DNA from: an uncultured archaeon
Lineage (GTDB): Archaea > Iainarchaeota > Iainarchaeia > Iainarchaeales > CSSED10-239
Length of the DNA: 12,775 nucleotides
Assembly: GCA_964586355.1 (NCBI GenBank)
Contig: CAZPGO010000020.1
Span: 1 to 12,775, forward strand
Reading direction: 5' to 3'
A program made the position numbers and the translations under genes. Of this stretch, positions 1 to 12,775 are shown piece after piece. The notes beneath the pieces were generated by a model. The model saw only the letters and a list, made by a program, of their open reading frames with translations. It was not told where the DNA came from and did not search any database. Numbering within the stretch: the first letter of the stretch is position 1; the number at the start of each line of letters is the position of its first letter.

Positions 1-491
1 CCGTCTGAATCTGTGTTTGTAGATAGTTTCTTTCCTTCTGAATCTACTTGATTTGTTAACTTTAAATATTCTTCTAACTGTTGACCAAATTTATCTTTGT
101 ATACAAAGTCTTTTCCGGTATTATATGGTGGATCAATGTAAATCATTTTTATTTTTTCAAAATAAGACTTTTGTAAGATTTTAAGAACTTCTAAGTTATC
201 TCCTTCAATAAAAAGATTTTTAGTTGTATCAAAATCTACTGATTCTTCTCTTACTGGTTTTAATGTGCCTGTTGTTCTATCTTGGATTATTTGAAAACAC
301 CTTGCTTTTCCGGCCCACATCATTCCATACTTTTCTTTTTCAAGATCTATTTCTTCTCCAAGAGTTAATTTTAGTTTATCAAAATCTATCTTCCCTTCTG
401 TAACTATTTCAGGGAATAATTCTTTTAATCTATTTATATTTTCTGATTTAATATCCTTTGAATTGAGATCTACTTTCAATATTTCAGTCAT
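1..491 (-). CDS. mod: Type III R-M Mod-like DNA methyltransferase (beta-class N6A/N4C MTase). Only the N-terminal ~163 codons are present; the gene continues past the left edge.
   Basis: Absent from the supplied ORF track because it runs off the window. Hand translation from the ATG at 491..489 stays open to nt 1: MTEILKVDLNSKDIKSENINRLKELFPEIVTEGKIDFDKLKLTLGEEIDLEKEKYGMMWAGKARCFQIIQDRTTGTLKPVREESVDFDTTKNLFIEGDNLEVLKILQKSYFEKIKMIYIDPPYNTGKDFVYKDKFGQQLEEYLKLTNQVDSEGKKLSTNTDSDG. Catalytic motif IV DPPY lies at 123..134 (aa 120-123). It is preceded by the NLFIEGDNLEVLKxL block typical of Type III Mod / N6_N4 MTases. A GGTGA SD at 496..500 sits 4 nt from the ATG. Confidence 0.85.
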   Translation of the reverse strand, partial: MTEILKVDLNSKDIKSENINRLKELFPEIVTEGKIDFDKLKLTLGEEIDLEKEKYGMMWAGKARCFQIIQDRTTGTLKPVREESVDFDTTKNLFIEGDNLEVLKILQKSYFEKIKMIYIDPPYNTGKDFVYKDKFGQQLEEYLKLTNQVDSEGKKLSTNTDSD

Positions 492-553
492 AATTTCACC
501 AATATTTATTTTTAATACTAAATTTATTTAAATATATTTAATGTATTTTAATT
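492..553 (-). promoter_or_regulatory. Intergenic leader of mod: SD GGTGA (496..500) and a TATA-like TTTAAATA box (minus strand, 532->525, ~34 nt upstream of the ATG)
   Basis: Minus-strand reading: ...ATATATTTAAATAAATTTAGTATTAAAAATAAATATTGGTGAAATTATG. The 23-nt block at 514..536 recurs at 3467..3489 upstream of the HerA-like gene (21/23 identical). TATA-like strings are common in DNA this AT-rich, so the promoter call is weak. Confidence 0.35.
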
Positions 554-1681
554 TTAATTTTCTAAAAAATAATTCAGATCTTTATCATTATGATCTTTAT
601 TATATACTTTTAAATATAATAGATCTACAATTCTATTTGAGTTTTCTCCGTTTGAACCAAATTCAATCTTTCTTAAAATATCTGGAATAATGGTGGCATT
701 TTTACCATATCCGGGAGATTCTGATGTCGGACCATAATTTCTACTATATATTCCATCTATTGTATCGTTATATTTTGAATTAGAAAAATTTTTAATAAAA
801 ATAATGTCTGTGTTTTTATCAACACCATGATCTCCAATATATTTACCAATTTTTAAATAATTTATCTCATTATAATTTAAATCATAAATGTGCCCTATTC
901 TCTGATCTATAATACTTTGTTTAAAATACAAATGATTTTGATCCTTATATAAATATAAATAATTAGTATCATCTCCAAATCTAAAAATTTCACCCACATA
1001 ATCAATAGTTAGATCATTAAAATATAATCCCAAAAATATTGTATAATTTTGATCTTCTGATAATTTAACAATCCCTTTTGTGTTTTTTGTAATTGTTAAT
1101 GCCATTTGATCATTAATTTTAGATTTAGATAATATTTTAGAATAAACTAAAGCATCATTTCTACAATTAGAATAATCTAATAAATAATAATAAGATGAAA
1201 ATCCAGTTGATGTGGTTCTTTCAACATTAAGATCTAATATTTTATTATCACACAAACCACTTTTATATAAATTAATTAATTCATTAAACCCACTATTATA
1301 ATCTGAAATATTTTTATTAACATCCACAGCAAAATTATAATAATTTAATTTACAATCATTATTTTCTTTTGTTACTTGATCTAAATTAGATTTGATTTTA
1401 TCACAATCAACTTTTGCAGATAATAATGAATTATTTAAATTTAAATATTCTTCGTTAGCGGTTTTTAAATTTTTTGACAATTCTAAATTTCTATTATTTA
1501 CTGAATTATTTTCTACAATAGAAATAAATAATAAAAAACTTAAAATTAATATCGCAATTGTTGAGCCAGCTAATCTTTTAGATTTAATATTAGCTCCACA
1601 TTTAGAACAATGCCTTGCATTAATTCTATTTTCGTGCCCACAACTGGAACATATTTTTTTATCTTTTAAACTTTTTGTCAC
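554..1681 (-). CDS. Zinc-ribbon single-pass membrane protein with a Cys-containing stalk and a beta-rich (possibly LamG/ConA-like) C-terminal domain; function unknown
   Basis: 375-aa ORF. GTG start at 1681 overlaps the upstream stop as GTGA, and a GGTGA SD at 1688..1692 sits 6 nt upstream. CxxCG-x9-CxxCG zinc ribbon at aa 11-28 (nt 1598..1651). Hydrophobic helix LAGSTIAILILSFLLFISIV at aa 37-56 (nt 1514..1573). A short coiled-coil-like stretch follows, then a Y/N/I-rich region predicted to be beta-rich. The C-terminal ...IVDLLYLKVYNKDHNDKDL resembles the end of LamG-type jelly rolls; this is a weak by-eye impression only. Confidence 0.75.
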   Translation of the reverse strand: MTKSLKDKKICSSCGHENRINARHCSKCGANIKSKRLAGSTIAILILSFLLFISIVENNSVNNRNLELSKNLKTANEEYLNLNNSLLSAKVDCDKIKSNLDQVTKENNDCKLNYYNFAVDVNKNISDYNSGFNELINLYKSGLCDNKILDLNVERTTSTGFSSYYYLLDYSNCRNDALVYSKILSKSKINDQMALTITKNTKGIVKLSEDQNYTIFLGLYFNDLTIDYVGEIFRFGDDTNYLYLYKDQNHLYFKQSIIDQRIGHIYDLNYNEINYLKIGKYIGDHGVDKNTDIIFIKNFSNSKYNDTIDGIYSRNYGPTSESPGYGKNATIIPDILRKIEFGSNGENSNRIVDLLYLKVYNKDHNDKDLNYFLEN

Positions 1682-3432
1682 AATTTTTCACCACAACAAT
1701 CACAATAATCTGATTTTGTTTTTAATAAAAGACCACACTTGTTACAATATTTTGAATTTTTTAAATTAGTTTTATCAAAATCACCATATTCTTCTGCTAA
1801 CTCTAATACTTGCTTAGACTTGCGTTCTGTATTCAATAAATATTTAATATTTTTTAATTTGTTAGACAATTCTGATATGTTTCCTTCTAAAGAAAGCATA
1901 ATTGATTTATCTTTTTCTAATTTGTTTTCTAAATCAGATATAATTTTTATTTGATCTTTATGTTTAGTTTCTAATAACTGAAATTTATCAAAAAGAATTT
2001 TCTTGCTTTTTACTAAATCAGACAATTCAGATTTTAAATCAATTAACTGCTTTTCTAATTTTTCTTTTTGATTAGATTGCTCAGCAAGTTCTTTTTTAGA
2101 ATCTGCAATTTCAGCAGCATATTTTGATACTTTGCCAGATAAATCACTTATTTGATTAGTTAAATCAATTATTTTATTTTCTTTATGTGATAATCTTAAA
2201 TTTTGTTCTTTTGAGATTTTAATATATTTTTCTAATTCTCGCTTTATTCTTTCTTGTTCCTGAATTTTTCTTTTTTCTATATTCACACTTGCATTAAAAT
2301 ATTCTGAAAATTTGTCTTCATCAAAATTTTTTTCAATTTTATCAAAACCAGGACGATCTTTTACTAAAGTAATTTTTAATTTTTGCGCTTTATTTGTAGA
2401 TGAAAATAAAGAATAACCTAAACCTGGGGATAACAAATTTCTAAAATTAGATTTATCTATTTGAAAAATTTTAGATAATGCAATAGCGTCTTTATCAGAA
2501 TTTGCTCTAAAACCAAGATATGCACCAGTATTTGCTCTTATAATTTCAGAAAAATCATCAGCACTTTGAGAAGCTAAAATTATACCTAGTCCGTATTTTC
2601 TAGATTCTCGAAGTATTTTATCAATAGGAGAATCTTCATATGCTAACCTGTGTGCTTCATCAATTACACAATATAATTCTAAATCAGATTTCCCTTTTAT
2701 ATATAAGTGATTAATTAATTTGCGTAATATTATTTCTGCAATTAAAGACTTTACCTCGTCTGTTGGATAATCGTTTAATTTTAATACGCTTGTTTTAGTT
2801 AAAATTTCTTTAAAAGGAATTGTTGTTTCGTTAGCATTAACAAATAAGGGTGTATCAAATATCACTCCAATTTTAGAAATTAATTTTTCAACATCAGGAT
2901 TAATTTTAGGCTCTTTTTCTCCTTTCGGGTCAAAAATCATTTTTTGAGAAAGCATAATTTTTTTAAATACAATAAATGGGAGTAATTGTACTGGTTTTTC
3001 ATTTTTTTGATGTAGATCTATAATTTCAGATTGAACATAAAATTCTTTTATAGATTCTCTAATAATACTAAATTGTATATCCCCTAAATGAAATATGTTC
3101 TTAAACATTTGACTAACTCTATAAGCAACATCTATTGGTCTTTCATTTGGTTGAATTTCAAGAGGATGAATTGTTGCACCGGTTTTTTCGAAATCAATTA
3201 TATTGTCTGACAATTGTTTGAAATCATCGTGAAAATCGATAACTAACGTATTAATTTTATTTTTACTTAATTCGAAAATAATTGATTTAATGGTTTCTGT
3301 TTTTCCAGAACCAGAACCCCCAATTAAAAGTAAATGTGGGTTGTGTTCATTCTGTGGAACCCAACAAATGTTAGAGTCTATTTCTGTATTTCCTGAATAT
3401 CCTTTACCTAAAAATATTTCTAATTTTTGCAA
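1678..3432 (-). CDS. HerA/FtsK-like (DUF87-type) P-loop ATPase with a ~180-aa C-terminal coiled coil and a terminal zinc ribbon
   Basis: 584-aa ORF. TTG start at 3432 with an AGGTGA SD at 3437..3442 (4-nt spacer). Walker A LLLIGGSGSGKT at aa 35-45 (GGSGSGKT = nt 3298..3321). Walker B LYCVIDEAHRL (VIDEAH = nt 2650..2667, aa 256-261). The block RESRKYGLGIILASQSADDF is typical of HerA/FtsK/VirB4-clade ATPases. Residues ~370-555 are heptad-like and K/E/L-rich. The C-terminus YCNKCG-x10-CDCCG forms a zinc ribbon (Cys codons span nt 1693..1746). Confidence 0.85.
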   Translation of the reverse strand: MQKLEIFLGKGYSGNTEIDSNICWVPQNEHNPHLLLIGGSGSGKTETIKSIIFELSKNKINTLVIDFHDDFKQLSDNIIDFEKTGATIHPLEIQPNERPIDVAYRVSQMFKNIFHLGDIQFSIIRESIKEFYVQSEIIDLHQKNEKPVQLLPFIVFKKIMLSQKMIFDPKGEKEPKINPDVEKLISKIGVIFDTPLFVNANETTIPFKEILTKTSVLKLNDYPTDEVKSLIAEIILRKLINHLYIKGKSDLELYCVIDEAHRLAYEDSPIDKILRESRKYGLGIILASQSADDFSEIIRANTGAYLGFRANSDKDAIALSKIFQIDKSNFRNLLSPGLGYSLFSSTNKAQKLKITLVKDRPGFDKIEKNFDEDKFSEYFNASVNIEKRKIQEQERIKRELEKYIKISKEQNLRLSHKENKIIDLTNQISDLSGKVSKYAAEIADSKKELAEQSNQKEKLEKQLIDLKSELSDLVKSKKILFDKFQLLETKHKDQIKIISDLENKLEKDKSIMLSLEGNISELSNKLKNIKYLLNTERKSKQVLELAEEYGDFDKTNLKNSKYCNKCGLLLKTKSDYCDCCGEKL

Positions 3433-3505
3433 GTTGTCACCTATGATAATCTATAAATATATTATAAATACTTAACTTATTTAAATATACTTTATTATTA
3501 TAATT
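3433..3505 (-). promoter_or_regulatory. Intergenic leader of the HerA-like gene: SD AGGTGA (3437..3442) and a TATA-like TTTAAATA box (minus strand, 3485->3478)
   Basis: Minus-strand reading: AATAAAGTATATTTAAATAAGTTAAGTATTTATAATATATTTATAGATTATCATAGGTGACAACTTG. The 23-nt box at 3467..3489 matches 514..536 at 21/23 positions. Confidence 0.35.
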
Positions 3506-4435
3506 TTAAATTAATTTATCTAATTTAAAATGTAATTTATAAGTATAAAATGATATGTTCTTTGTAACACTTAGTGCGCGTCTTATTCTTATATCGTCTT
3601 CAAATGCAACAATTATACCTTTTACTATTTGACCTTTTTCTAATAGTTCATCTTGTACATAGCCCATATATCTTTGTATTTGACCTACAACAATGTCGCT
3701 TGCTCTACCTTTTTTTAATTCTATTACTAATAGTTCTTTCTTATCTCTGCTTATTGCTAATATGTCAATATTACCTGTGTCACTGGGGTATTGTTGTCCA
3801 ACAATTTCCCCATCTTCTGTAAATATATCATATTCTCTTCCTAGTTCTGTTTTTGACCAATTTTTTATTAAAAATTCTTCTAAATGTTGCTCTAAAGCAA
3901 AAACACTAGCATCTTCGATTGTTTCATCTGTTGAAATTATTTTTGGAGGTTTACATCCAGACATTAATGATTCTATTTCAGATTCATATTTTGAAATATT
4001 ACTTACTGTTCCTATAGATCCTGTTGAATTTTTAAGTTCTTGACTCATTTCATCTCTATTAATTGTTTTTAAATACCATTTCACTGCTCTTCTATGAGGC
4101 AATTGTTGATCTGCTTTATATTCATAATTACTTACAACTTCTCCCACATAATAATTACCAATCCCATCTGGACATAAAACAACGTCTCCAATTTGTATTC
4201 CTTTAATTATTGTCCAAAGCATCCCACAAGCAAGTCCTGCTGATATTTTTATTTTATCTGGATTTTGTTCTAAAAATACAGGTATAAATTCTTTATTAAA
4301 ATCTCTCCAATTATCTACTAAATGATTAGATAAATCTTTAGATTTTATTAACTCTGCACCAATATAATTTCCTTTATATGATTCTTCAGCAAATACACTT
4401 TTTTTACCTAACATTATTCTATAATATTTTTTCAT
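3506..4435 (-). CDS. NucS/DUF91-like PD-(D/E)xK endonuclease domain (C-terminal) fused to an unassigned ~165-aa N-terminal domain
   Basis: 309-aa ORF with an ATG at 4435 and a GAGGGT SD-like site at 4446..4451. The C-terminal half reads LEQHLEEFLIKNWSKTELGREYDIFTEDGEIVGQQYPSDTGNIDILAISRDKKELLVIELKKGRASDIVVGQIQRYMGYV. This is the D...E-x-K core (IDIL / IELK) followed by the GQ(I/L)xRYMG helix characteristic of NucS C-terminal/DUF91 nucleases. The N-terminal half (YYRIMLGKKS...GLACGMLWTIIKGIQIGDVVLCPDG...LPHRRAVKW) recalls a conserved bacterial family that I cannot name with certainty. Confidence 0.75.
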   Translation of the reverse strand: MKKYYRIMLGKKSVFAEESYKGNYIGAELIKSKDLSNHLVDNWRDFNKEFIPVFLEQNPDKIKISAGLACGMLWTIIKGIQIGDVVLCPDGIGNYYVGEVVSNYEYKADQQLPHRRAVKWYLKTINRDEMSQELKNSTGSIGTVSNISKYESEIESLMSGCKPPKIISTDETIEDASVFALEQHLEEFLIKNWSKTELGREYDIFTEDGEIVGQQYPSDTGNIDILAISRDKKELLVIELKKGRASDIVVGQIQRYMGYVQDELLEKGQIVKGIIVAFEDDIRIRRALSVTKNISFYTYKLHFKLDKLI

Positions 4436-4471
4436 AATATTTTCAACCCTCTTATTTTTTAATTATTTAAT

Positions 4472-5215
4472 CTAATCAATTATTTTATGTAATATCTCTT
4501 TAAAGTCAATATATTTATTCTGATTATATAATTCTTCAATTTCTTTAAGACTAAACGGTTTAGTTTCATTATTAATATTAATTTTAGGCTTTAATTTATC
4601 ATTCTTAACTATATAATATGGACTAGCACTAAATTTAAATAAAGGAAATATATAGTTAAAAATTTCGTCATCTTCTGATTTCTTTGTTTCAAAAGTTTCT
4701 TTAAATTTTTTATTTACATTATTATAGCTTTCAAATATATAAAATATCTTTTTCTTGTCTATTTTAAATTCATTTGATAATTCTTCAACTCTATTAAAAT
4801 AATTTTTATTTTCAATTAGTTTACGATCCCAACCAATAGTGGTTTTTATTTCTATAATTGCTTGATTTTTACCATCTTTTTTAATCAAAATATCTGGTCG
4901 CAATTTATTTTGTTTTTCTTCTAATATAATCTCATATTCTTCTGGCAAAACATTTTTTAAATAAAAAGCGATTATATCTTGAAATATATCAGATAAAGAA
5001 GAATATATTTTTCTTTTAAACTCTATTTTATGTCTCCATTGTGCCAATCTTATTGAAAATAAATCTAAATATATTAATTTAGAAATGTCCTCTGTTTCAG
5101 AAATTTTATTTTTTTCTAGAAAAGCATCTAGAAACAAAGCATATTTGTCTCCAATTTTTGATTTAAACACAATCATTTCCCTTTTTATTTTCTTTTTTTG
5201 GTAATTCATTAACAT
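4472..5215 (-). CDS. Small PD-(D/E)xK (restriction-endonuclease-fold) protein; start uncertain (ATG at 5215, 5209 or 5176)
   Basis: 247-aa ORF. The core EEYEIILEE...LRPDILIKKDGKNQAIIEIKT (nt 4841..4900) gives a textbook E...PD...(E)xK arrangement (PD at aa 107-108, EIK about 14 aa later). It overlaps the upstream gene by 53 nt if the start is 5215, or by 14 nt if the start is 5176. No strong SD supports any of the three candidate starts. Confidence 0.6.
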   Translation of the reverse strand: MLMNYQKKKIKREMIVFKSKIGDKYALFLDAFLEKNKISETEDISKLIYLDLFSIRLAQWRHKIEFKRKIYSSLSDIFQDIIAFYLKNVLPEEYEIILEEKQNKLRPDILIKKDGKNQAIIEIKTTIGWDRKLIENKNYFNRVEELSNEFKIDKKKIFYIFESYNNVNKKFKETFETKKSEDDEIFNYIFPLFKFSASPYYIVKNDKLKPKININNETKPFSLKEIEELYNQNKYIDFKEILHKIID

Positions 5216-5891
5216 AATTTATTATTAAATTATCAATTAATTTTGGTTTAGGCATGATAATTTGTTTTCTTTCTAAATTTTTATAATATTTGTCTATATC
5301 GTTTTTTTTATTATTAAGTAATTCTTTGCCTAAATTTAATACTTTTAAAAAAGATCGACATTGCTTATCAGATCGCCCATAAAATGTTATTATTTTTGAA
5401 GTGTAAGCATTATCCATTGGAATAATTAAATCTGGTAATAAAAAATGAAGTGTTTTTGAAATTGAAACAAATTTAGATTCTGATTTTTTCTCTTGCTTAT
5501 TAACTGTTACAAAAGATAGATTTGTAAATAATTGATTAAACTTCTTACCAATCTCTGAGTTTTCTGATATTTCTTCTTTTATATTTTCTAATTTTTTAAT
5601 TTTCCAAAAATATTCTAAATTTGAGCTTTGACTTTGTAATTGTTTTTTAAAATCTTCAAATGAAACTAACCAACTTTGCCCCCTATTTAATCTCCAAGCA
5701 ATTAAACAAGCATAACATCTTTCTAGAAATTGATCATTATCTAGTTTATCTGATATTGACAGATCTTTTGATTCTAATATTTTTATATAAAAATATTCTG
5801 ATGCAGGAGAAAACATTTCTTTTTCATCTATTGCTAAATATTTAGAAATATCTTTATTACAAAAAATTTTGAATTCTTCTAAATTAGTCAT
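5163..5891 (-). CDS. Hypothetical, mostly alpha-helical protein (~243 aa); family not recognised, with a weak resemblance to HhH-GPD/OGG-fold proteins
   Basis: The ORF track gives 5163..5933, but that uses a TTG start lying inside the helicase gene. The first ATG (5891, MTNLEEFKIF...) lies 7 nt after the helicase stop (5899) and is preferred. There is no nucleotide-binding or nuclease motif. The segment SKTLHFLLPDLIIPMDNAYTSKI resembles the (K)xLHFxxP-x-hhPhxD stretch of OGG-fold/HhH-GPD-like proteins. This comparison is from memory and unverified. Confidence 0.6.
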   Translation of the reverse strand: MTNLEEFKIFCNKDISKYLAIDEKEMFSPASEYFYIKILESKDLSISDKLDNDQFLERCYACLIAWRLNRGQSWLVSFEDFKKQLQSQSSNLEYFWKIKKLENIKEEISENSEIGKKFNQLFTNLSFVTVNKQEKKSESKFVSISKTLHFLLPDLIIPMDNAYTSKIITFYGRSDKQCRSFLKVLNLGKELLNNKKNDIDKYYKNLERKQIIMPKPKLIDNLIINYVNELPKKENKKGNDCV

Positions 5892-5898
5892 ATTTTTC

Positions 5899-8598
5899 TC
5901 ACATCCCTTTTTCTTTCCTATATTGCTCAACAATAGATCTCGTGATCGGATTGTGATCTGTTGGCTTGATCTTTTCTAGATCTTTAATAAAAGTTTCTGG
6001 ATCGATCTTCCAGTCTACAATGATCTGAATGTGCTTGGTGATAGTGCCTATGGCACTTGATCTTGGCTTGGAGTCGTCAAGAGTCTTATCAATGGTACCA
6101 TCATTAATTGTTTTTTTTAAAGAGACATACCCAATAGCTACTTTAATCTTTTCTTTTGGAATAGAGTGAGTGTAAGAAAAAATATTCTTATAAAGCTCTA
6201 GTTGCTGACGATGCGCTCCTGCTGTTTTTGTATTCTTGTCTGTCTTCCAATCTACTATTAAGTATTCATCTGTTTCTGGGTTTCTAAAGATTGCGTCTAT
6301 CTTTCCAGTAAAAGTGAGATCGCTTGGAATTGTGGTTACAACATAAAGTGGAACCTCTCTAAAACCAAGCTCTGCTGCTATAACTTCTGAATATGTGGAT
6401 TTTATCTCAGAGATAAGGTATTTAGAGTTGTCTAAGATTTCGTGTGTTTCTTCATCAAGAATGGATAGATCTATTGGTTGATCTTTTAATAATTGCTCAA
6501 TAAGATTGTGAATGTCTGATCCTCTTGTTAGTGCTTTAGAAAATTGTGTTAACTTTAGTATTCTTTGTGTTAAATATTTCTCTGGATCTGTCTCTATTCC
6601 TGAATAGGAAAGATGATTAAGGTTTTCAAAATGTCTTGTAATATAGTCAATTATCCAAGAAGTATTATTTTCTAATTGTTTTTTTGCATTTTCATAATCT
6701 TTATTTACAAATAAGGAAAAAGCTTTTTTGTTAATATCTGAAAAATCAATAACACTTTCTTCTGGAACAATATTTTCTAAAAGAACTGAGTATTCATTTT
6801 TATAGTCTGGAGCTTTAGAAGTTAAAATATATAATTCTTCTTTAGCTCTAGTTACTGCAACAAAATCAATTCTGTTAGGTTCTTCTTCCAGTTCTTCTTT
6901 TGGATTTTTATTTAGACTATTTAAGATGGCAATAGTGATTGCATCTTGAAAGTTTTCATTATCATTGGTTTTACTTGGAACATAAATTACTTTTTCAAAT
7001 TGTCTACCTTTTGATTTATGAACTGTTGTTAAAATAACTTTATTTTCTGTTTTAATCTCTTCAGCTAATTGTTCAGCAGACAACAAAAAATTACAAAGAT
7101 TTTCTAGAGTTTTGTTTTCTAGAAGATCAAGGGCTTCAATTGTTGCTCTTTGCATGTTTATACAGGAGAGTGTGTAATCTCTTCCATAGGAAACAGCAAC
7201 AGGAAGTATGTTGTTTTTAAAAATGTTGTCTAAATCATTAATGTTACTAATAGATTCTCTTAATTCCTTATATTTTGGATATTTATCATAAACCTCTTCA
7301 AGAGTTAATTTATTATTTTCAGCAAGTTCAAAAGCATCTTGTAAGCAAATAGGAAAAAATGGTGTAAACATAGATGCTTTTATTAAATTTATATCTTTAC
7401 TTAATAGTCCTTTTAAAAAACTAATAATATTTTCCTTAGCTTCATCACTTGAAGTTAAATATGTTGAAGAAAAAGATATTCCATTTATCTCTAGCTCTTT
7501 AGCAAACTTATATAGTTGTGAATTTTTTCTTGCAATTATTGCAATTTCTTTATTTTCCTTCATTTGTTGTTCTTTAATAAAATAGGCAATAAAAGAGGGA
7601 ACATTATCCTTTACTGCAATAATTGATGGTTTTTCTCCTTTTTTAGCTGTTGCACTTTTTAGATCTTTAATTTCTTCAAGATCTGATTTATCTGCAGTCT
7701 TAGAAGAAAACAATTCTTTAGAATAATTTAAAATTTCATCTGTACTTCTAAAATTATCAGAAAGAACAAACTCTTTACCTGAATTAAACTTTAAAAAATT
7801 ACCTATAGATCCACCTTGAAAACCAAAAATTGCTTGTTTTTTATCTCCAACCACAACAAATTTTTCACAAACAGACAAAGCAATATCTGCTTCCATATCA
7901 TTAACGTCTTGTAGTTCATCTACTAATACCCATTTGAATTTTGGTTTATTTTTAATTTCTAAAAAATTTATTAAAATATCTGTATAATCTAATCCCTTTT
8001 TTTTCTTAAAATTTTCATATCTTTCAAAGATCTTAATAAAGTGTTCTAAATAAGACTCTAATTGCTCTTTATCATAGGTTTTAAATTCAGTAATATGTGT
8101 TTTAACATCATCTATATTTATTTTAGAAGGAATTATACCAAAACTTTTTAAATATCTAATTGCATTTTCAATTTTAGGAACAATTGTCTCTAATAAATAA
8201 TTATCTCCATAGTTTAGTACTTGGTTTTCAATCAAGTAAGAATAAATCTCATATCTTAAGAGATTAGAGGAAATAATTTCATTATCTTCTAGATTATCCA
8301 AAGAAAAAGCATGAAATGTTTGAATATTAATCTGAGATAAATCAATTTCTAGATTTTCAGTTTCTACAAGATTTAAAATTCTTTCTTGCATTTCCCCACA
8401 GGCTTTTTCAGTAAAGGTTAGACAAAGGATGTCTTTTGGAGAAATTCCTTGATATAATAAATAAACATATTTGTATGCAAGAAGTTTAGTTTTACCAGTT
8501 CCTGGGTTAGCTATAACAATTGTAGAATCATTATGTTTAATTGCATTCTTTTTTTCCTGATTAAGATCAGCCATTTCTATAAACTCAATTTCATTCAT
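5899..8598 (-). CDS. UvrD/Rep/PcrA-type SF1 helicase fused to a C-terminal RecB-family PD-(D/E)xK nuclease domain
   Basis: 899-aa ORF. Walker A ANPGTGKT (nt 8488..8511). Motif II VLVDELQD (nt 7906..7929). Further helicase motifs: VVGDKKQAIFGFQGG, DNFRS, TTVHKSKGRQFEKVIYV and VAVTRAKEELYIL. The C-terminal nuclease reads GSDIHNLIE...GKIDAIF (D768, nt 6295..6297)...YLIVDWKT (D783/K785, nt 6241..6255)...QQLELY. No Cys cluster is present, so it is not a Cas4/AddB-type Fe-S nuclease. The ATG at 8598 overlaps the Bro-N stop as ATGA; M9 (8574) is an alternative start. Confidence 0.9.
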   Translation of the reverse strand: MNEIEFIEMADLNQEKKNAIKHNDSTIVIANPGTGKTKLLAYKYVYLLYQGISPKDILCLTFTEKACGEMQERILNLVETENLEIDLSQINIQTFHAFSLDNLEDNEIISSNLLRYEIYSYLIENQVLNYGDNYLLETIVPKIENAIRYLKSFGIIPSKINIDDVKTHITEFKTYDKEQLESYLEHFIKIFERYENFKKKKGLDYTDILINFLEIKNKPKFKWVLVDELQDVNDMEADIALSVCEKFVVVGDKKQAIFGFQGGSIGNFLKFNSGKEFVLSDNFRSTDEILNYSKELFSSKTADKSDLEEIKDLKSATAKKGEKPSIIAVKDNVPSFIAYFIKEQQMKENKEIAIIARKNSQLYKFAKELEINGISFSSTYLTSSDEAKENIISFLKGLLSKDINLIKASMFTPFFPICLQDAFELAENNKLTLEEVYDKYPKYKELRESISNINDLDNIFKNNILPVAVSYGRDYTLSCINMQRATIEALDLLENKTLENLCNFLLSAEQLAEEIKTENKVILTTVHKSKGRQFEKVIYVPSKTNDNENFQDAITIAILNSLNKNPKEELEEEPNRIDFVAVTRAKEELYILTSKAPDYKNEYSVLLENIVPEESVIDFSDINKKAFSLFVNKDYENAKKQLENNTSWIIDYITRHFENLNHLSYSGIETDPEKYLTQRILKLTQFSKALTRGSDIHNLIEQLLKDQPIDLSILDEETHEILDNSKYLISEIKSTYSEVIAAELGFREVPLYVVTTIPSDLTFTGKIDAIFRNPETDEYLIVDWKTDKNTKTAGAHRQQLELYKNIFSYTHSIPKEKIKVAIGYVSLKKTINDGTIDKTLDDSKPRSSAIGTITKHIQIIVDWKIDPETFIKDLEKIKPTDHNPITRSIVEQYRKEKGM

Positions 8599-9467
8599 TT
8601 TTTTTCTTTTTTATAAATTATTTTCTTATTTTTGGGAGATTTTAATAATCTTTTTTTCTTTTCAGAAATTGTTAAATAATTATCTTTTGTAGATATTTTT
8701 CTGCCAAGGCCCTTTTCAATTTCTTTACGTGCATTGCCTGCAGCAGTTCCACCAATTTCAGCAACTTTTTTCAGTTTTTTAAATTCAGCTTCTTTTTCTT
8801 TAATAGTTAATTCCTTAGTTACACTTTCTCCAAGCATTGTAAATATTAATTCCATATCATCCATATGATCTATTAAGTTTTCTTTTTTTAAACCTTTAAA
8901 TTTTTTATATTCAGAGGGGGTCATATTAAACGTAGCTTTTGAGATTTCAGCAGTTAATATTGAAAAGTCTTTTTCTTGCTTAACTCCTTTTTTTTTCCAC
9001 TCGTCTGTTAATTCATCTCTAACTATTATTCCTCTTATTCTTTTTTCAATCCAAGCTTCAGAATACCCTTTTGATATATATAGCTCTCTCATTCTTGTTT
9101 GTGCAAGTTCTGGGTTTTCGATCTCTTGAACTCTTTGATAACCAACATTTGCTAACCATTGTTTAAATGGTTCTGCTTTTGGAGAAGGTATTGATTGAAT
9201 CAAACGAAACAACCATTTAACATTTAAACAATCAGTACCATAATATTTTCCATCTATTGCAGGCATTTTAAGTTGGTTACAAAATGTAACCAACTCACTA
9301 CCTTCTTCTTTTAATCTAAATTTTAAAACTTTCCAATAATTTCTGGAATCTTGACTATCTGTTAAAACACTAACAACATCAATAACAGAAAACCACCATT
9401 CGTTATTAAACCAAACTCTTCTTATTTTTTTATCTTGAAAAACAATTAGTCCTTTTTCTTTTTCCAT
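8595..9467 (-). CDS. Bro-N domain protein with a DinD-like C-terminal region
   Basis: The ORF track's 9497 start is a TTG inside the upstream gene. The ATG at 9467 (MEKEKGLIVF...) lies 8 nt after that gene's stop, with an AGTGA SD-like site ~9 nt upstream. N-terminal region: FQDKKIRRVWFNNEWWFSVIDVVSVLTDS...NYWKVLKFRLKEEG...LFRLIQSIPSPKAEPFKQWLA, the Bro-N signature. C-terminal region: ELTDEWKKKG...FKGLKKENLIDHMDDMELIF...GGTAAGNARKEIE, which resembles E. coli DinD-like proteins. Confidence 0.85.
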   Translation of the reverse strand: MEKEKGLIVFQDKKIRRVWFNNEWWFSVIDVVSVLTDSQDSRNYWKVLKFRLKEEGSELVTFCNQLKMPAIDGKYYGTDCLNVKWLFRLIQSIPSPKAEPFKQWLANVGYQRVQEIENPELAQTRMRELYISKGYSEAWIEKRIRGIIVRDELTDEWKKKGVKQEKDFSILTAEISKATFNMTPSEYKKFKGLKKENLIDHMDDMELIFTMLGESVTKELTIKEKEAEFKKLKKVAEIGGTAAGNARKEIEKGLGRKISTKDNYLTISEKKKRLLKSPKNKKIIYKKEKK

Positions 9468-9475
9468 ACTTTTTT

Positions 9476-10846
9476 TCACTTTTTTATAATTTCCCAATGC
9501 CCACCTTTATCAGGACCAACTCTTTTTATTTTGCCTTCTTTCTTTAATTTAGAAAGATTATATTTTATACCGTCTTCTGTTATATTACCTATTAATGCTG
9601 TTAATTTTTTTATAGAATATGCTGAATTTTCGGTAAGTAAATCTATTATTTTCTGGGTAGTTTTCTGGGTAGTTTTCTGGGTAGTTTCTATCGTGTTATT
9701 ATTTTGAGCGTCATCTATTGATTCACTAGGTGTTTTCTGTAATGGCTTATAAAAAATAACATCAAACCAATTTTTACTTATATTAAATTTTAATTTTAAA
9801 TTATATTCTTTCATAGCCTGCTTAATTCTAGTTATTCCTGATCCTACTCTTTCCCCTAAATCAAGTCTTAACATTAAATCAAAAAGAAGAGGATTTCTGG
9901 GCATGCTTTTCTTATCTATGTCCTTTTTAGATAATCCTGATACTAATCCTCCAGGATTTGTTATTTCAACTCTATCATAAAATATATCAACTTGTATTTG
10001 ACCGTTAGAAAAATAATCTCTATGAGCAATAGCATTAATTAATGCTTCTCTTATTGCTTTTTCTGGAATTTCTAATTTATTAATTCGATTTTTTCCTTCT
10101 ATAATATAATTTGTATTTAATCTTGAACAAATATAATCAAAAGCATTATCAAAATTAGAGTATAGATCTGCATCAAAGTCTTTTTTATCTAAAATATCTA
10201 ATTTATTTCTACCTTTGTATAATATACAAGTAATTCTGGCATTTATAAAAAACTTAGTTATTCTGTGGCAAAATATTAAAACTCCTGCATTTTTTAGATT
10301 ATTTCCATCTAATAACGATAAATTTCTTAATAAATCTAATTGTGATAAATTATTAGTAATATTTGCTTTTTTTAGAAAAAATTCATAAACTGATTTATTA
10401 AAATCATCGTTTAAATCAAAATTAAAATTTGGTTTTTCATCAAATAATACTTGTCTTTCATTTTTAAAAAAATCTCTTAATTCATTTCTATTCATTTTTT
10501 GAGAAGTTGCACCTATTCTTATATAGTATTGCCCAGAATGTGCATAAGGTTTATCTTCTCCTTCAGGAACAGTAATCACAGTTAGTTGATTATCTATTTG
10601 TTTTATAAAAACAATAATAGAAGGATCTATATGTCTAGCAATATCTTGAATTTTAGAAGCAATAGAATTATTTAGCTTAAATCCTTTAACTTCTCCATTA
10701 TCTTTAACACCTAAAATTATCTTTCCACCAGAAGAATTTGCAAAAGCGCAAATGGTTTTACCAATAGTATCAGTATATGACTCTTTAAACTCAAGAGTGT
10801 ACCCCTCTCCAACTTTAATTAAATCTAAAACTTCTGATCTATTCAT
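9476..10846 (-). CDS. AlbA_2 (Schlafen-like, 'divergent AAA') + HATPase_c_4 + C-terminal winged-helix protein; putative DNA-binding or sensor regulator
   Basis: 456-aa ORF with an ATG at 10846 and an AAGGAAA site upstream. N-terminal region: EGYTLEFKES...ICAFANSSGGKIILGVKDNGEVKG (AlbA_2 signature). Middle: REALINAIAHRDY...ITNPGG (HATPase_c_4-like). C-terminal region: IIDLLTENSAYSIKKLTALIGNITEDGIKYNLSKLKKEGKIKRVGPDKGGHWEI (wHTH). The linker contains TTQKTTQKTTQK, encoded by a 12-bp tandem repeat. Confidence 0.85.
   Translation of the reverse strand: MNRSEVLDLIKVGEGYTLEFKESYTDTIGKTICAFANSSGGKIILGVKDNGEVKGFKLNNSIASKIQDIARHIDPSIIVFIKQIDNQLTVITVPEGEDKPYAHSGQYYIRIGATSQKMNRNELRDFFKNERQVLFDEKPNFNFDLNDDFNKSVYEFFLKKANITNNLSQLDLLRNLSLLDGNNLKNAGVLIFCHRITKFFINARITCILYKGRNKLDILDKKDFDADLYSNFDNAFDYICSRLNTNYIIEGKNRINKLEIPEKAIREALINAIAHRDYFSNGQIQVDIFYDRVEITNPGGLVSGLSKKDIDKKSMPRNPLLFDLMLRLDLGERVGSGITRIKQAMKEYNLKLKFNISKNWFDVIFYKPLQKTPSESIDDAQNNNTIETTQKTTQKTTQKIIDLLTENSAYSIKKLTALIGNITEDGIKYNLSKLKKEGKIKRVGPDKGGHWEIIKK
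9649..9688. repeat. Perfect 12-bp tandem repeat ttttctgggtag, 3 full copies plus 4 nt, in frame within the AlbA_2-family gene
   Basis: Direct reading: 9649..9660, 9661..9672 and 9673..9684 are identical, and 9685..9688 (tttc) starts a fourth copy. It encodes (T)TQK x3 in the linker before the wHTH domain. Confidence 0.95.
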
Positions 10847-10918
10847 TTGTTTTCCTTTTAACTATTATTATATTTTATAACCAATTTCTTTTAAAATAAA
10901 ACTTTTATCTAAAATCTT

Positions 10919-12133
10919 TTAATTTTCTGGTTCAATTATAGATATTAAATAATTGTCTAATAATTTTTTTGTTGCTATTTTAATATCTTCAACAGATAAT
11001 TTTTCTAAATCTTTTATTCTATTTTCATTAGCAATTTTATATTCAAAGAATTCATTTAATACTTCTTTGTCTGCTAACAAAAAAGGATATTGATCTGTTT
11101 TTTTATAACTTTTTAAACATTTTTTTTTAATAAAATTAAATTCCTTTTTATCAATAGTTAATAATTTATTTAATTCTTCAAAAATTGAATTTATTGCAAG
11201 ATCAGTATTATTAGAGTCAATTGTTGTTTTTATTAAAAACAAACCAGTTTCTTGAAATGGTACATTTACTGAATAAATGTTATAAGTTAATCCTAGTTTT
11301 TGTCTAACAGCATCATTTAAGTTAATAGATTTTCCTAAACTTAATAACAAATCAATTGTTTCAAAAGCAATATATTCTTGATCTGTATATTTAGGAGATA
11401 AAAATCCTATTCCTAAATGGTTTTTTGTGATGCCGTTCTTCTTTTTTTTAATTTTTAATTTATTATTAAAATCAGGTATTGTTATTTTGCTATCTTTTAG
11501 ATCTCCAATAGGCAAAGTAAAATATTTTTCTATTAATGGAAATGGATCTTCAATATTTCCAATAACTACTATAATCATATTATTTGCAACATAATATTTT
11601 TCATAATGTTTTACTAGTTGTTCTCTAGTAAAAGATTTAATATTCTCTTCAGTTCCAATAAGTGGCAATTCTAAAGAATGTCCTTTAAAAATATTTGAAT
11701 AAATTGTTTTGTTTAATAGATCATCTGGATCATCATCATATCTTTTATATTCATCCAATATAACATTTCTTTCTCTTTCTATTTCTTCTATATCAAAATT
11801 AGGATTACAAATAATATCCATAAATTTTTTCAAAAGTTCTTCAAAATATCTTTTTTTTGAAGAAATAAAATGAACAGTTCTTTTATGGGTTGTAATTGCA
11901 TTAAAATTACCCTCTATTGATCTAAGATATTCTCTTATTTCTTTTTGAGTATAGTTTTTTGATCCTTGCCAAATTAAATGTTCTACAAAATGAGTTATGC
12001 CATTATTTTCTTTGGTTTCATTCTGGGAGCCTACTTTAATATGTGCTTGTATTGACATTCTAGAAGATTTATTTTTAACATGGATAATTTTCAATCCATT
12101 GGGTAGGATTTTTCTTATAATTTCAGATCTCAT
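10919..12133 (-). CDS. M16-family (pitrilysin/insulinase-like) zinc metallopeptidase
   Basis: 404-aa ORF. The inverted zincin motif HxxEH appears as HFVEH at aa 48-52 (nt 11978..11992), within GITHFVEHLIWQGS. Downstream EGNFNAITTHKRT is typical of M16 N-terminal domains. The two-lobed length is appropriate for the family. A GTGAT SD-like site lies upstream of the ATG at 12133. Confidence 0.85.
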   Translation of the reverse strand: MRSEIIRKILPNGLKIIHVKNKSSRMSIQAHIKVGSQNETKENNGITHFVEHLIWQGSKNYTQKEIREYLRSIEGNFNAITTHKRTVHFISSKKRYFEELLKKFMDIICNPNFDIEEIERERNVILDEYKRYDDDPDDLLNKTIYSNIFKGHSLELPLIGTEENIKSFTREQLVKHYEKYYVANNMIIVVIGNIEDPFPLIEKYFTLPIGDLKDSKITIPDFNNKLKIKKKKNGITKNHLGIGFLSPKYTDQEYIAFETIDLLLSLGKSINLNDAVRQKLGLTYNIYSVNVPFQETGLFLIKTTIDSNNTDLAINSIFEELNKLLTIDKKEFNFIKKKCLKSYKKTDQYPFLLADKEVLNEFFEYKIANENRIKDLEKLSVEDIKIATKKLLDNYLISIIEPEN

Positions 12134-12267
12134 TAATAATCACAGATATATTATAGTTGCAAAATGTTTATAAACACATACTTGTTTTTTTAAATTTGTT
12201 CAAAATTATTTGAATAAAGTTAATATTTATAAAACCTATCATCTTATTTATTATTGTGATTAAAACT
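12134..12267. promoter_or_regulatory. Divergent intergenic region between the M16 peptidase and the CARF-like gene; holds SD-like TGTGATTA on each side and several TATA-like boxes
   Basis: The minus-strand gene is preceded by CTGTGATTATTAATG. The plus-strand gene is preceded by ATTGTGATTAAAACTATG (12254..12270). TTTATAAA-type boxes occur around 12167 and around 12226. No transcription data are available, and AT-rich background makes the box calls weak. Confidence 0.3.
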
Positions 12268-12775
12268 ATGAAAAAAATATTGATCAGCAACGCTTATGAC
12301 TTTACTCCAATGGTTGGAGCAATTACAAAGATCGGACCAGATGTTGTTTATGCAGTTATGAATAATACTCCTGAAACACATCAAAAAGAAGCATTAAAGA
12401 AACTTAAAAACACATTTAAACATATAGAGTTCAAAGAGATCAAAACAGAGATCTATAAAGTTTATGAAGTAGCAAAAGAAATAGTTAAAGCAATAGATCA
12501 AATATATGTTCAAGACACAGAGATCTATTTAGATATAACCTCTGGAAGAAAAACAAAATCTATTGGAATACTTCTTAGTGGGTATCAAAGAGCAGATAAG
12601 ATTAAAGATATTCTTTATTTTACACAAGAAATTAATCAAATGGTAACTTTACCAAAACTTTCTTTTGAAATTAGTAAAAAATCAGCAGATCTTCTAACAA
12701 TTGTTTCAAAAAAACCAATAACTTTGCCAGATCTTGCAAATAATAAAAAACTAAATTCAATGGGAAGAACTTCTG
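12268..12775 (+). CDS. CARF-like Rossmann domain followed by the start of a wHTH (Csa3-like regulator architecture); partial, continuing past the right edge
   Basis: Absent from the ORF track. Hand translation from the ATG at 12268 stays open to the window end: MKKILISNAYDFTPMVGAITKIGPDVVYAVMNNTPETHQKEALKKLKNTFKHIEFKEIKTEIYKVYEVAKEIVKAIDQIYVQDTEIYLDITSGRKTKSIGILLSGYQRADKIKDILYFTQEINQMVTLPKLSFEISKKSADLLTIVSKKPITLPDLANNKKLNSMGRTS... The first strand plus Gly-rich loop is followed by LDITSGRK at about aa 97-104, which matches the position and form of the CARF D-x-T/S-x-G-x-R/K motif. The segment after it (ADLLTIVSKKPITLPDLA) looks like the beginning of a wHTH, as in Csa3. Confidence 0.5.
   Translation, partial: MKKILISNAYDFTPMVGAITKIGPDVVYAVMNNTPETHQKEALKKLKNTFKHIEFKEIKTEIYKVYEVAKEIVKAIDQIYVQDTEIYLDITSGRKTKSIGILLSGYQRADKIKDILYFTQEINQMVTLPKLSFEISKKSADLLTIVSKKPITLPDLANNKKLNSMGRTS

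Follow-up and report, generated by a model that had tools for sequence, protein, structure and literature searches.

Defence islands and hotspots (Makarova–Koonin), in which restriction-modification genes lie together with candidate defence genes, are well known. The 'guilt-by-embedding' rationale comes from the study behind the PADLOC embedded candidates (bioRxiv 10.1101/2024.01.29.577857). One of these is HEC-05, which belongs to the GmrSD-like Hma-embedded candidates of Payne et al.; seven embedded candidate systems, not necessarily including HEC-05, are reported to have confirmed anti-phage activity (bioRxiv 10.1101/2024.01.29.577857). Other systems are recognized by a set of genes, and the detection model of MADS requires MAD6, MAD7 and MAD8 (bioRxiv 10.1101/2023.03.30.534895). 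Type III restriction-modification systems of the EcoP15I type carry mod first, which encodes an N6-adenine methyltransferase with a DPPY motif, and directly after it res, with SF2 helicase and endonuclease domains. In this study, we compared these systems with a stretch of 12,775 nucleotides (nt) of an archaeal genome (positions from 1, forward strand of contig CAZPGO010000020.1; hereafter the window).

As far as sequence comparison can tell, the region is in all likelihood a defence-gene island at a recombination-prone site beside an M16 peptidase gene, made up of several stacked modules and not of one system. Defence families are clustered in it (Type III Mod, PDC-S02, PDC-S13, a GajB-like helicase-nuclease, a DptH/mad8-like ATPase and a CARF gene), and gene content varies while the flank is conserved, both in a co-occurring strain (L001) and in a relative (L011), with the caveat that the AlbA_2 and Bro-N genes act as flank. 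An earlier interpretation made without database searches (the sequence-only reading) had proposed a defence or restriction-modification island; its core is upheld by the Type III pair, the PDC-S02 and PDC-S13 genes and a cassette swap, while its boundary, its nuclease count and the extent of its cluster had to be revised. The genes and elements are as follows.

1..491 (coding from 3), minus strand: N-terminus of Mod (PADLOC MTase_III), running off the left end
514..536, minus strand: first copy of a 23-nt element, in the spacer upstream of mod
554..1681, minus strand: ZnTM375, with a zinc ribbon, one transmembrane helix and a C-terminal region of ~315 amino acids (aa)
1678..3432, minus strand: HerA584, a HerA/FtsK-like P-loop ATPase (DUF87)
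3467..3489, minus strand: second copy of the 23-nt element, upstream of HerA584
3506..4435, minus strand: PDC-S02 member (PADLOC PDC-S02, NucS_C)
4472..5170 (alternative start at 5215, giving 247 aa), minus strand: unk232, with conserved PD-(D/E)xK residues and an AF2 model
5163..5891 (alternative TTG start at 5933, giving 256 aa), minus strand: unk242, with an all-alpha AF2 model
5899..8598, minus strand: UvrDnuc899 (UvrD-helicase, UvrD_C, PDDEXK_1)
8595..9497, minus strand: Bro-N protein, a PDC-S13 member (PDC-S13, Bro-N)
9476..10846, minus strand: AlbA456 (AlbA_2, HATPase_c_4)
10919..12133, minus strand: M16 peptidase (Peptidase_M16, M16_C)
12268..12775, plus strand: CARF/Csa3-like gene (PADLOC CARF3), cut by the window end

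The minus strand carries ten genes in succession, and the plus strand a single one, which is truncated at the right end. Nine co-directional minus-strand genes occupy 1..10846, with spacings from Mod rightwards of 62, -4, 73, 36, -8, 7, -4 and -22 nt and then 72 nt to the M16 gene (the -22 becomes +8 nt if the ATG start called by JGI is used). The widest gap inside this block is 73 nt, as the sequence-only reading had stated. The co-directional cluster runs on leftwards past the window to the rest of Mod, Res and a 187-aa gene, as seen on contig L040, and thus comprises eleven genes. Profile searches (Pfam, PADLOC, NCBIfam) showed that seven of the nine genes carry the domains claimed for them, and the matches confirm the methyltransferase, the HerA/FtsK-like ATPase, the UvrD helicase, Bro-N and AlbA_2, as well as the neighbouring M16. 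Of the four PD-(D/E)xK domains counted by the sequence-only reading, three are supported (the C-terminal half of PDC-S02, unk232 and the C-terminus of UvrDnuc899); no fourth was found, unk242 being all-alpha and ZnTM375 consisting of a zinc ribbon, a transmembrane helix and an unassigned domain.

Three transcription units (TUs) are proposed on the basis of gene spacing and sequences resembling promoters. TU1 would comprise the AlbA_2 regulator, Bro-N (PDC-S13), the UvrD-nuclease, unk242, unk232 and PDC-S02, whose internal gaps are all ≤36 nt, with Shine-Dalgarno (SD)-like sequences and a TATA-like box upstream of the unit. TU2 would hold the HerA-like ATPase and ZnTM375, and TU3 the Type III genes mod and res together with the 187-aa gene.

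Contig L001 shows a clean natural example of cassette replacement between strains with nearly identical flanks. It is 99.95% identical to the window over 8878..12775, covering the CARF gene, M16, AlbA_2 and the first two-thirds of Bro-N. A deletion between AAGAAAA microhomologies has then removed ~245 nt from the 3' end of Bro-N, which is cut after residue ~197. Around the Bro-N stop and the helicase start, 43 nt are kept (L001 3915-3962 compared with window 8585-8632 and 8878-8914). Both helicases begin with MNEI, and the sequence differs from the fifth codon, 13 nt into the gene. The replacement, covering the helicase and everything onward for at least 5.3 kb, encodes a 1094-aa UvrD-nuclease that is 26% identical to the 899-aa UvrDnuc899, followed by a GmrSD protein (HEC-05, E-value 7.7e-135). 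Many metagenome contigs break between 8077 and 8985, as would be expected at a branch of the assembly graph.

In the relative L011 (a 171-kb contig), the order is M16, AlbA_2, Bro-N, two inserted genes, UvrD-nuclease and unk242, with aa identities to the window of 48% for M16, 60% for AlbA_2, 75% for Bro-N, 66% for the UvrD-nuclease and 60% for unk242. Beyond unk242 the gene content is unrelated; a DEAD/MZB helicase, MazG, an SLFN-type helicase and Dcm are among the genes there. Within L011, the tblastn match to Bro-N (4055-4860) shifts reading frame after codon 214, which suggests a frame shift, and a second AlbA_2/HATPase_c_4 paralogue with a Fic-like C-terminal domain (5587-7227) is inserted before the helicase.

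Since AlbA_2 and Bro-N travel with M16 in both L001 and L011, we place the boundary between variable and conserved sequence inside Bro-N (~8633..8889) and not, as formerly proposed, at 10847..10918. The G+C content is ~25% in the window and ranges from 0.19 to 0.35 along it, with no step at 10847..10918 or at either edge, and a compositional boundary was rejected. Comparison with relatives, which the sequence-only reading had recommended, did reveal a variable block beside a conserved M16 gene: L001 swaps the helicase and what follows, L011 diverges after unk242, and the block is therefore not conserved as a whole. Judged by this synteny, the site beside M16 appears to be a long-lived location for defence-type genes, with a flank-like proximal part (AlbA_2 and Bro-N) and turnover of genes in the distal part.

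The left end of the block belongs to a Type III restriction-modification system. The Mod fragment comprises the first 163 aa, matches PADLOC MTase_III over residues 6-162 (5.9e-71) and contains the DPPY motif (IDPPYNTG). Contig L040 (16.5 kb), which is 99.76% identical to window 1..8263, carries both Mod and Res, and the fragment is therefore part of a complete Type III pair. Here, the full mod encodes 620 aa with an N6_N4_Mtase domain, and the gene for a 977-aa Res (ResIII and RE_endonuc), directly downstream and outside the window, begins 1 nt past the end of mod. The 187-aa gene follows res; beyond it, the opposite strand encodes unrelated genes, namely an SNase-like gene, one with a weak similarity to TrmB (E 5.7e-4, short of the Pfam cut-off) and one of the HIT family. 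The Mod alleles of L040 (7773-9635, 620 aa) and L042 (8621-10591, 656 aa) are 85% identical at their ends and unalignable in the centre, which looks like the classic pattern of a target-recognition domain swapped between strains. By analogy, the enzyme would methylate host DNA and cut unmethylated invader DNA after ATP-driven communication between sites.

Two exact copies of a 23-nt element, AATACTWAAYTTATTTAAATATA on the plus strand, occur at 514..536 and 3467..3489, upstream of mod and HerA584, respectively. Both contain the archaeal TATA-like TTTAAATA, sit within ~56 nt of wider similarity (504-559 and 3457-3512), and are followed by a GGTGA Shine-Dalgarno-like sequence ahead of the start codon (ATG for mod). 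Two exact copies compare with 0.02 expected, for a pattern derived from these same two copies; both are present in every near-identical contig that covers the two positions. Sharing of this element by HerA584 and mod hints at co-regulation of TU2 and TU3; the element may be a promoter or regulator site common to both, or a promoter that was duplicated.

HerA584 carries its ATPase within residues ~1-350 (DUF87, 1.7e-9), followed by a long coiled coil of ~200 aa and a C-terminal zinc ribbon; its TTG start is preceded by AGGTGA. The best PADLOC matches are the C-terminal region of DndH (4.9e-31) and full-length mad8 (2.3e-22). Its plasmid-borne relatives comprise DptH and small DUF87 proteins: the top match falls in a DUF87 protein that a Priestia plasmid encodes directly after DptG, which is the DptH position, and a second Priestia plasmid match is annotated as DptH itself. 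By these similarities, we assign the ATPase to the DptH/mad8 clade of DUF87 proteins. The partner, ZnTM375, has a zinc ribbon at residues 8-32 (Zn_Ribbon_1, 2.3e-5) and a transmembrane helix at residues 38-56, with a hydropathy peak of 2.5 at residue 38, and only 4 homologues were found among 5.8 billion proteins. The HerA584 and ZnTM375 genes overlap by 4 nt. On L097, a short contig ending at both genes, a 62% identical ZnTM375 homologue and a 71% identical HerA-like gene again overlap by 4 nt, which argues for a conserved pair. JGI labels ZnTM375 'ribosomal protein L40E'; the NCBIfam L40e score is far under its cut-off (18 bits against 54), so the label probably derives from the zinc ribbon alone.

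Two of the predicted nucleases are among the three small proteins encoded at the end of TU1. The PDC-S02 protein matches its PADLOC profile over the full length (4.3e-159; protein residues 1-305 against profile 1-305 of 308). Its N-terminal half carries a DUF8426 label in the precomputed Pfam annotation of the contig genes, and its C-terminal half is a NucS_C/YhcG-type PD-(D/E)xK nuclease (NucS_C, 9.6e-8), which also matches the PDB structure of NucS, 2vld, in the nuclease domain only (0.0047). An assignment as the mismatch endonuclease NucS/EndoMS was rejected: with 37.4 bits (1.3e-9), the NCBIfam NucS score is far from its cut-off of 216, the alignment is confined to residues 204-297, and the N-terminal domain of NucS is missing.

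For unk232 (232 aa), 38 homologues were found, the closest named one being from 'Candidatus ainarchaeum sp.' (69% identity). E84, P92-D93 and E107-x-K109 are invariant across 37 homologues, and the best Foldseek matches of its AF2 model (pLDDT 90) in the PDB, although weak (E 0.02-0.1), all have the restriction-endonuclease fold (EndoMS/NucS, BstEII, BbvCI, PfoI). The model and the invariant residues support unk232 as a predicted PD-(D/E)xK restriction-endonuclease-fold protein. Within 48 metagenome loci analysed for its neighbourhood, it is paired with a DUF2779/Cas4-like protein in at least 7 distinct loci (L045/L055, L047, L053, L062, L076, L091, L093), where it lies directly beside a protein of ~480-640 aa with a Cas4-like nuclease and a DFET-motif domain. 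In L076, the order is DUF2779, a 232-aa gene, unk232 and a UvrD-type helicase of 968 aa. A homologue of unk242 in L021 also adjoins a DUF2779 protein, and DUF2779 plus its neighbour may form a separate two-gene module. A gene for a C-5 cytosine methyltransferase (Dcm, 9.2e-90) comes directly behind an unk232 homologue in L060 (2252-4189) and L061 (5168-7105). Type II restriction-modification pairs are arranged in this way, and part of the family may therefore be conventional restriction endonucleases.

Linkage kept despite a changed gene order is the usual signature of functional coupling. The order unk242, unk232, PDC-S02 of the window recurs in L049 and L050, while L051 (34% G+C) has a PDC-S02-like gene, unk232 and unk242 on one strand in an order that differs from the window; L057 has unk242 and then unk232. 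Because the linkage survives this change of order, we treat the three genes as a candidate cassette. The three stretches that the sequence-only reading had singled out as candidates for new defence genes are not equivalent: those at 5163..5891 and 4472..5215 recur with PDC-S02, and that at 554..1681 is the obligate partner of HerA584. A one-base frame shift at codon 151/152 interrupts the PDC-S02 gene of L049 (1341-2271) and L050 (1749-2679), which is 84-87% identical to that of the window and is either a pseudogene or affected by a sequencing error common to both contigs. The adjacent unk232 and unk242 genes reach only 62-68% identity.

The unk242 protein has a confident all-alpha AF2 model (pLDDT 91.3, pTM 0.89) and eight invariant residues (K146, H149, P153, P158, D160, P216, K217 and D220). 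It gave no match in Pfam, NCBIfam, PADLOC or PHROG and none in a sequence or profile search of the PDB, and Foldseek found no match of the model in the PDB (best E 0.54, TM below 0.21) or BFVD. Besides 76 word-indexed homologues, its profile matches 1519 clusters (50% identity) with a threshold of E≤1e-3 and 1187 with the stricter E≤1e-10, with homologues spread across many archaeal and bacterial phyla; the best match in a scan of genome contigs is only 37% identical, and the best one in GTDB comes from Nanoarchaeia. The latter, the 'Candidatus ainarchaeum sp.' homologue of unk232 and the G+C content of 25% together suggest that the host is probably a DPANN-type archaeon. Homologues of unk242 lie between HsdR and HsdM (L026), between Mod and Res (L039), beside Mrr (L024) and, in L098, beside a PLD-helicase, an MmeI-type methylase and an RloB module. 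In L017, one adjoins GmrSD-like (DUF262) and Cas4-like proteins, judged by eye from the translations. PADLOC profiles of DNA methyltransferases were matched most often by the 89 genes that lie up to two positions away from the GTDB homologues. From these neighbourhoods, unk242 appears to be a widespread family that is repeatedly embedded in Type I and Type III operons and has no Pfam model.

Some members of the unk242 family are fused to DUF7669, zinc ribbons or DUF4268 (P0157, P0176, P0196, P0239, P0142), and these fusions may point to the function of the family. A HhH-GPD DNA glycosylase, suggested by the motif VSKTLHFLLPDLxxPxD with its resemblance to the K...D spacing of EndoIII, was rejected on account of missing fold and profile similarity; there were no glycosylases among the Foldseek PDB matches of the model. 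The UvrD-nuclease was likewise rejected as an obligate partner of unk242, since the association holds only in the close relatives L011-L013; L033 is the only GTDB unk242 locus with a nearby UvrD-type helicase, a weak match two genes away. The 241-aa and 321-aa genes of L045, considered as homologues of unk242 and of the 321-aa gene of L011, showed no BLAST similarity to them.

The remaining three proteins of TU1 are encoded in its upstream part. UvrDnuc899 combines a UvrD/PcrA-type SF1 helicase (UvrD-helicase, 2.5e-42; UvrD_C, 3.9e-17) with a C-terminal Cas4/AddB-type PD-(D/E)xK nuclease (PDDEXK_1, 1.3e-10), and in PADLOC it scores best against GajB profiles (1.6e-44). The Bro-N protein (Bro-N domain, 2.3e-12) is a full-length PDC-S13 member (3.1e-116; residues 11-291 against profile 1-283 of 286). 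AlbA456 carries AlbA_2/Schlafen (1.3e-23) and HATPase_c_4 (1.4e-20) domains and a winged-helix-like C-terminal tail, and the spacer upstream of its gene holds TATA-like and SD-like sequences. It is a probable DNA-binding regulator or sensor, encoded by the first gene of the long TU1.

The M16 gene encodes an insulinase-type zinc peptidase (Peptidase_M16, 2.6e-32; M16_C, 2.3e-27), is identical in sequence on 7 metagenome contigs, and is a conserved anchor outside the defence content. Divergent from it, the CARF/Csa3-like gene matches PADLOC CARF3 (1.6e-36), HFX_2341_N (8.5e-10) and Csa3_N (0.0028); by these matches, defence-related content appears to extend past M16 on its far side. Contig L003 (1-330) leaves the window sequence at 12713, inside this gene, and its own version is shorter, with 159 aa. 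Neither cas genes nor a CRISPR array were seen nearby.

The PADLOC searches, which the sequence-only reading had recommended, gave MTase_III, PDC-S02, PDC-S13, GajB-like, DndH/mad8-like and CARF3 matches and no complete Gabija, MADS or Dnd system. Gabija was rejected because GajA, the OLD-type ATPase/TOPRIM nuclease, has no match among the window proteins, which contain only the GajB-like helicase. MADS was rejected with the mad8-like match (2.3e-22) standing alone. For Dnd/Dpt (DndFGH), the match is limited to positions 1340-1642 of 1715 in the DndH profile; DndF and DndG have no PADLOC match among the window proteins, and the sole DndD match is a weak coiled-coil one (8.3e-6).

One alternative reading takes the block as a housekeeping cluster for DNA repair and recombination, with an AddA/RecB-like end processor (the UvrD-nuclease), a NucS-like mismatch endonuclease and a HerA end-resection motor. 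Domain similarity to PcrA/UvrD/AddA (1.2e-40 to 2.2e-28), NucS (1.3e-9) and the HerA/FtsK family fits such a cluster, as do the synteny of the UvrD-nuclease with M16 in L011 and the presence of a UvrD-nuclease at the same site in L001. We nevertheless regard it as very unlikely. Homologues that turn out to be repair or replication genes had been named as counter-evidence to a defence island, and the membership tests failed: NCBIfam scores are far under the equivalog cut-offs (PcrA 140 against 911, NucS 37 against 216, anti-phage HerA 21 against 800 bits), and the NucS match is limited to the nuclease domain. A HerA-NurA/Mre11-Rad50 operon was also rejected, with HerA scores of 17-21 bits compared with cut-offs of 22 (Pfam HerA_C) and 800-850 (NCBIfam) and no match to NurA, Mre11 or Rad50 among the window proteins in the Pfam and NCBIfam scans. 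The exchange of the helicase for one only 26% identical, between flanks of 99.95% identity, is unlike a housekeeping orthologue, and the genes around it belong to a Type III system and to PDC families, with GmrSD among them in the variant.

Neither the window nor its 16.5-kb extension, for which we used metagenome contigs encoding exactly the same proteins, contains an integrase, tRNA genes, attachment-type repeats, capsid, portal or relaxase genes, and the window holds no Rfam families or long terminal repeats, as the sequence-only reading had noted for tRNAs, integrase and terminal repeats. This makes it unlikely that the region was carried in by an integrated mobile element (provirus or integrative/conjugative element) as its cargo, or is what remains of one. 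In such an element, Bro-N and AlbA_2 would be viral-type regulators and HerA584 with its membrane partner a motor for DNA transfer or packaging. Such an origin would agree with the PHROG matches of Bro-N (phrog_15286, 6.7e-91) and AlbA456 (phrog_12156, 3.9e-68), with a terminase-large-subunit PHROG matched by the ATPase part (C-terminal) of HerA584 (1.6e-13), with weak NCBIfam similarity to CedB, CedD and VirB4 (1e-13 to 9e-12), and with presence and absence at strain level. On the other hand, neither unk242 nor unk232 has relatives in IMG/VR or PLSDB, the best match of the ATPase is the DptH/mad8 defence clade, and the same position beside M16 is occupied in L011 at 48-75% aa identity, which argues for a long-lived chromosomal site. 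That all nine genes form one methylation-associated system similar to BREX, DISARM or MADS, using Mod, two motors and all nucleases, is extremely unlikely. The genes are co-directional and tightly spaced, a mad8/DndH-like ATPase lies beside the methyltransferase, and the ATPase and mod operons have a promoter element in common; yet unk242 occurs elsewhere without the other parts, the HerA584-ZnTM375 pair is found elsewhere too (L097, on a contig ending at both genes, with neighbours out of view), the L011 UvrD-nuclease is followed by unrelated genes, and L001 replaces the helicase and at least 5.3 kb after it. Moreover, MADS needs MAD6, MAD7 and MAD8, of which only a mad8-like match is present, and the core genes of BREX and DISARM have no PADLOC match.

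Several points weigh against an island of stacked defence modules. The comparison rests on short metagenome contigs, with the L001 cassette seen up to the contig end, and the set of AlbA_2, Bro-N, UvrD-nuclease and unk242, being syntenic with M16 at 48-75% aa identity, is fairly stable and not freely variable. Given the strong PHROG matches, a viral or mobile origin of Bro-N and AlbA_2 themselves is possible. Operon boundaries are based solely on spacing and promoter-like sequences, and PDC-S02 and PDC-S13 are, according to their own authors, untested single-gene candidates (bioRxiv 10.1101/2024.01.29.577857). With regard to the proposed cassette, unk232 pairs more often with the DUF2779 protein than with unk242, and distant homologues of unk242 have no constant neighbour, several lying beside housekeeping genes.

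Within the preferred reading of an island beside M16, the UvrD-nuclease and the three small TU1 proteins would act as restriction-like modules for DNA degradation, to which PDC-S02 and unk232 would supply PD-(D/E)xK active sites. The unk242 protein may be a non-nuclease partner, serving in recognition or regulation or as an enzyme that uses its conserved K/H/D cluster, and AlbA_2 and Bro-N would be DNA-binding regulators or sensors of TU1. HerA584 would be a DptH/mad8-type motor held at the membrane by ZnTM375 and could be co-regulated with mod-res through the shared 23-nt promoter element. A bolder proposal, in which unk242, unk232 and PDC-S02 form a new three-gene nuclease defence system, the unk242 family is a general restriction-modification accessory and HerA584-ZnTM375 is a new membrane-anchored DptH/mad8-type motor co-regulated with the Type III pair, is possible, but we hold it only tentatively and rather doubt it as a whole.

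The island itself is ordinary, and its value lies in testable candidates from a poorly sampled archaeal lineage, probably of DPANN type. We consider the new leads, which are the PDC-S02-centred cassette, the unk242 family and the putative membrane-tethered ATPase pair, modestly novel. PDC-S02, catalogued as a stand-alone candidate, may in some lineages work with two partners; unk242 draws attention to a widespread family for which there is neither a Pfam model nor a structural match in the PDB or BFVD; and a DptH/mad8-type ATPase is linked to a membrane partner and, via a promoter, to a Type III system.

Compared with the described systems, the Type III genes share the mod-res layout and the DPPY methyltransferase of the EcoP15I type, and the Mod target-recognition region is strain-variable here; they differ by the extra 187-aa gene after res and by an ATPase operon of DptH/mad8 type with a matching promoter element directly upstream. 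HerA584 resembles DptH/DndH and MADS Mad8 in its first ~350 residues, which can be aligned with DndH (at its C-terminal ATPase) and with full-length mad8, whereas DndF/G, DndA-E and Mad6/7 are missing. In contrast to DptH/DndH and Mad8, HerA584 has an added coiled coil and zinc ribbon and would be translationally coupled to a membrane-anchored zinc-ribbon protein with almost no relatives. Like GajB of Gabija, the UvrDnuc899 helicase scores best against GajB profiles, whereas its nuclease is a PD-(D/E)xK domain of the same polypeptide, an arrangement found in AddA/AddB or RecB-type enzymes. Both unk232 and the C-terminal half of PDC-S02 share the fold and the D...ExK signature with NucS/EndoMS and Type II endonucleases; unlike NucS/EndoMS, both are without the N-terminal DNA-binding domain and score far below the NucS equivalog cut-offs, and unlike Type II endonucleases, they have no cognate Type II methyltransferase adjacent within the window.

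The PADLOC embedded candidates (bioRxiv 10.1101/2024.01.29.577857) are represented by full-length PDC-S02 and PDC-S13 and, in the alternative cassette, by the GmrSD-like HEC-05; these families were defined in bacteria, whereas they are found here in a low-G+C archaeon with an apparently small genome. Relative to other defence islands, no mobility genes were seen, and part of the island (AlbA_2, Bro-N, UvrD-nuclease and unk242) keeps its synteny in a relative that is fairly distant. What the locus has in common with the defence islands and hotspots of Makarova and Koonin is the clustering of known with candidate genes and the swapping of cassettes between near-identical strains while the flank is conserved.

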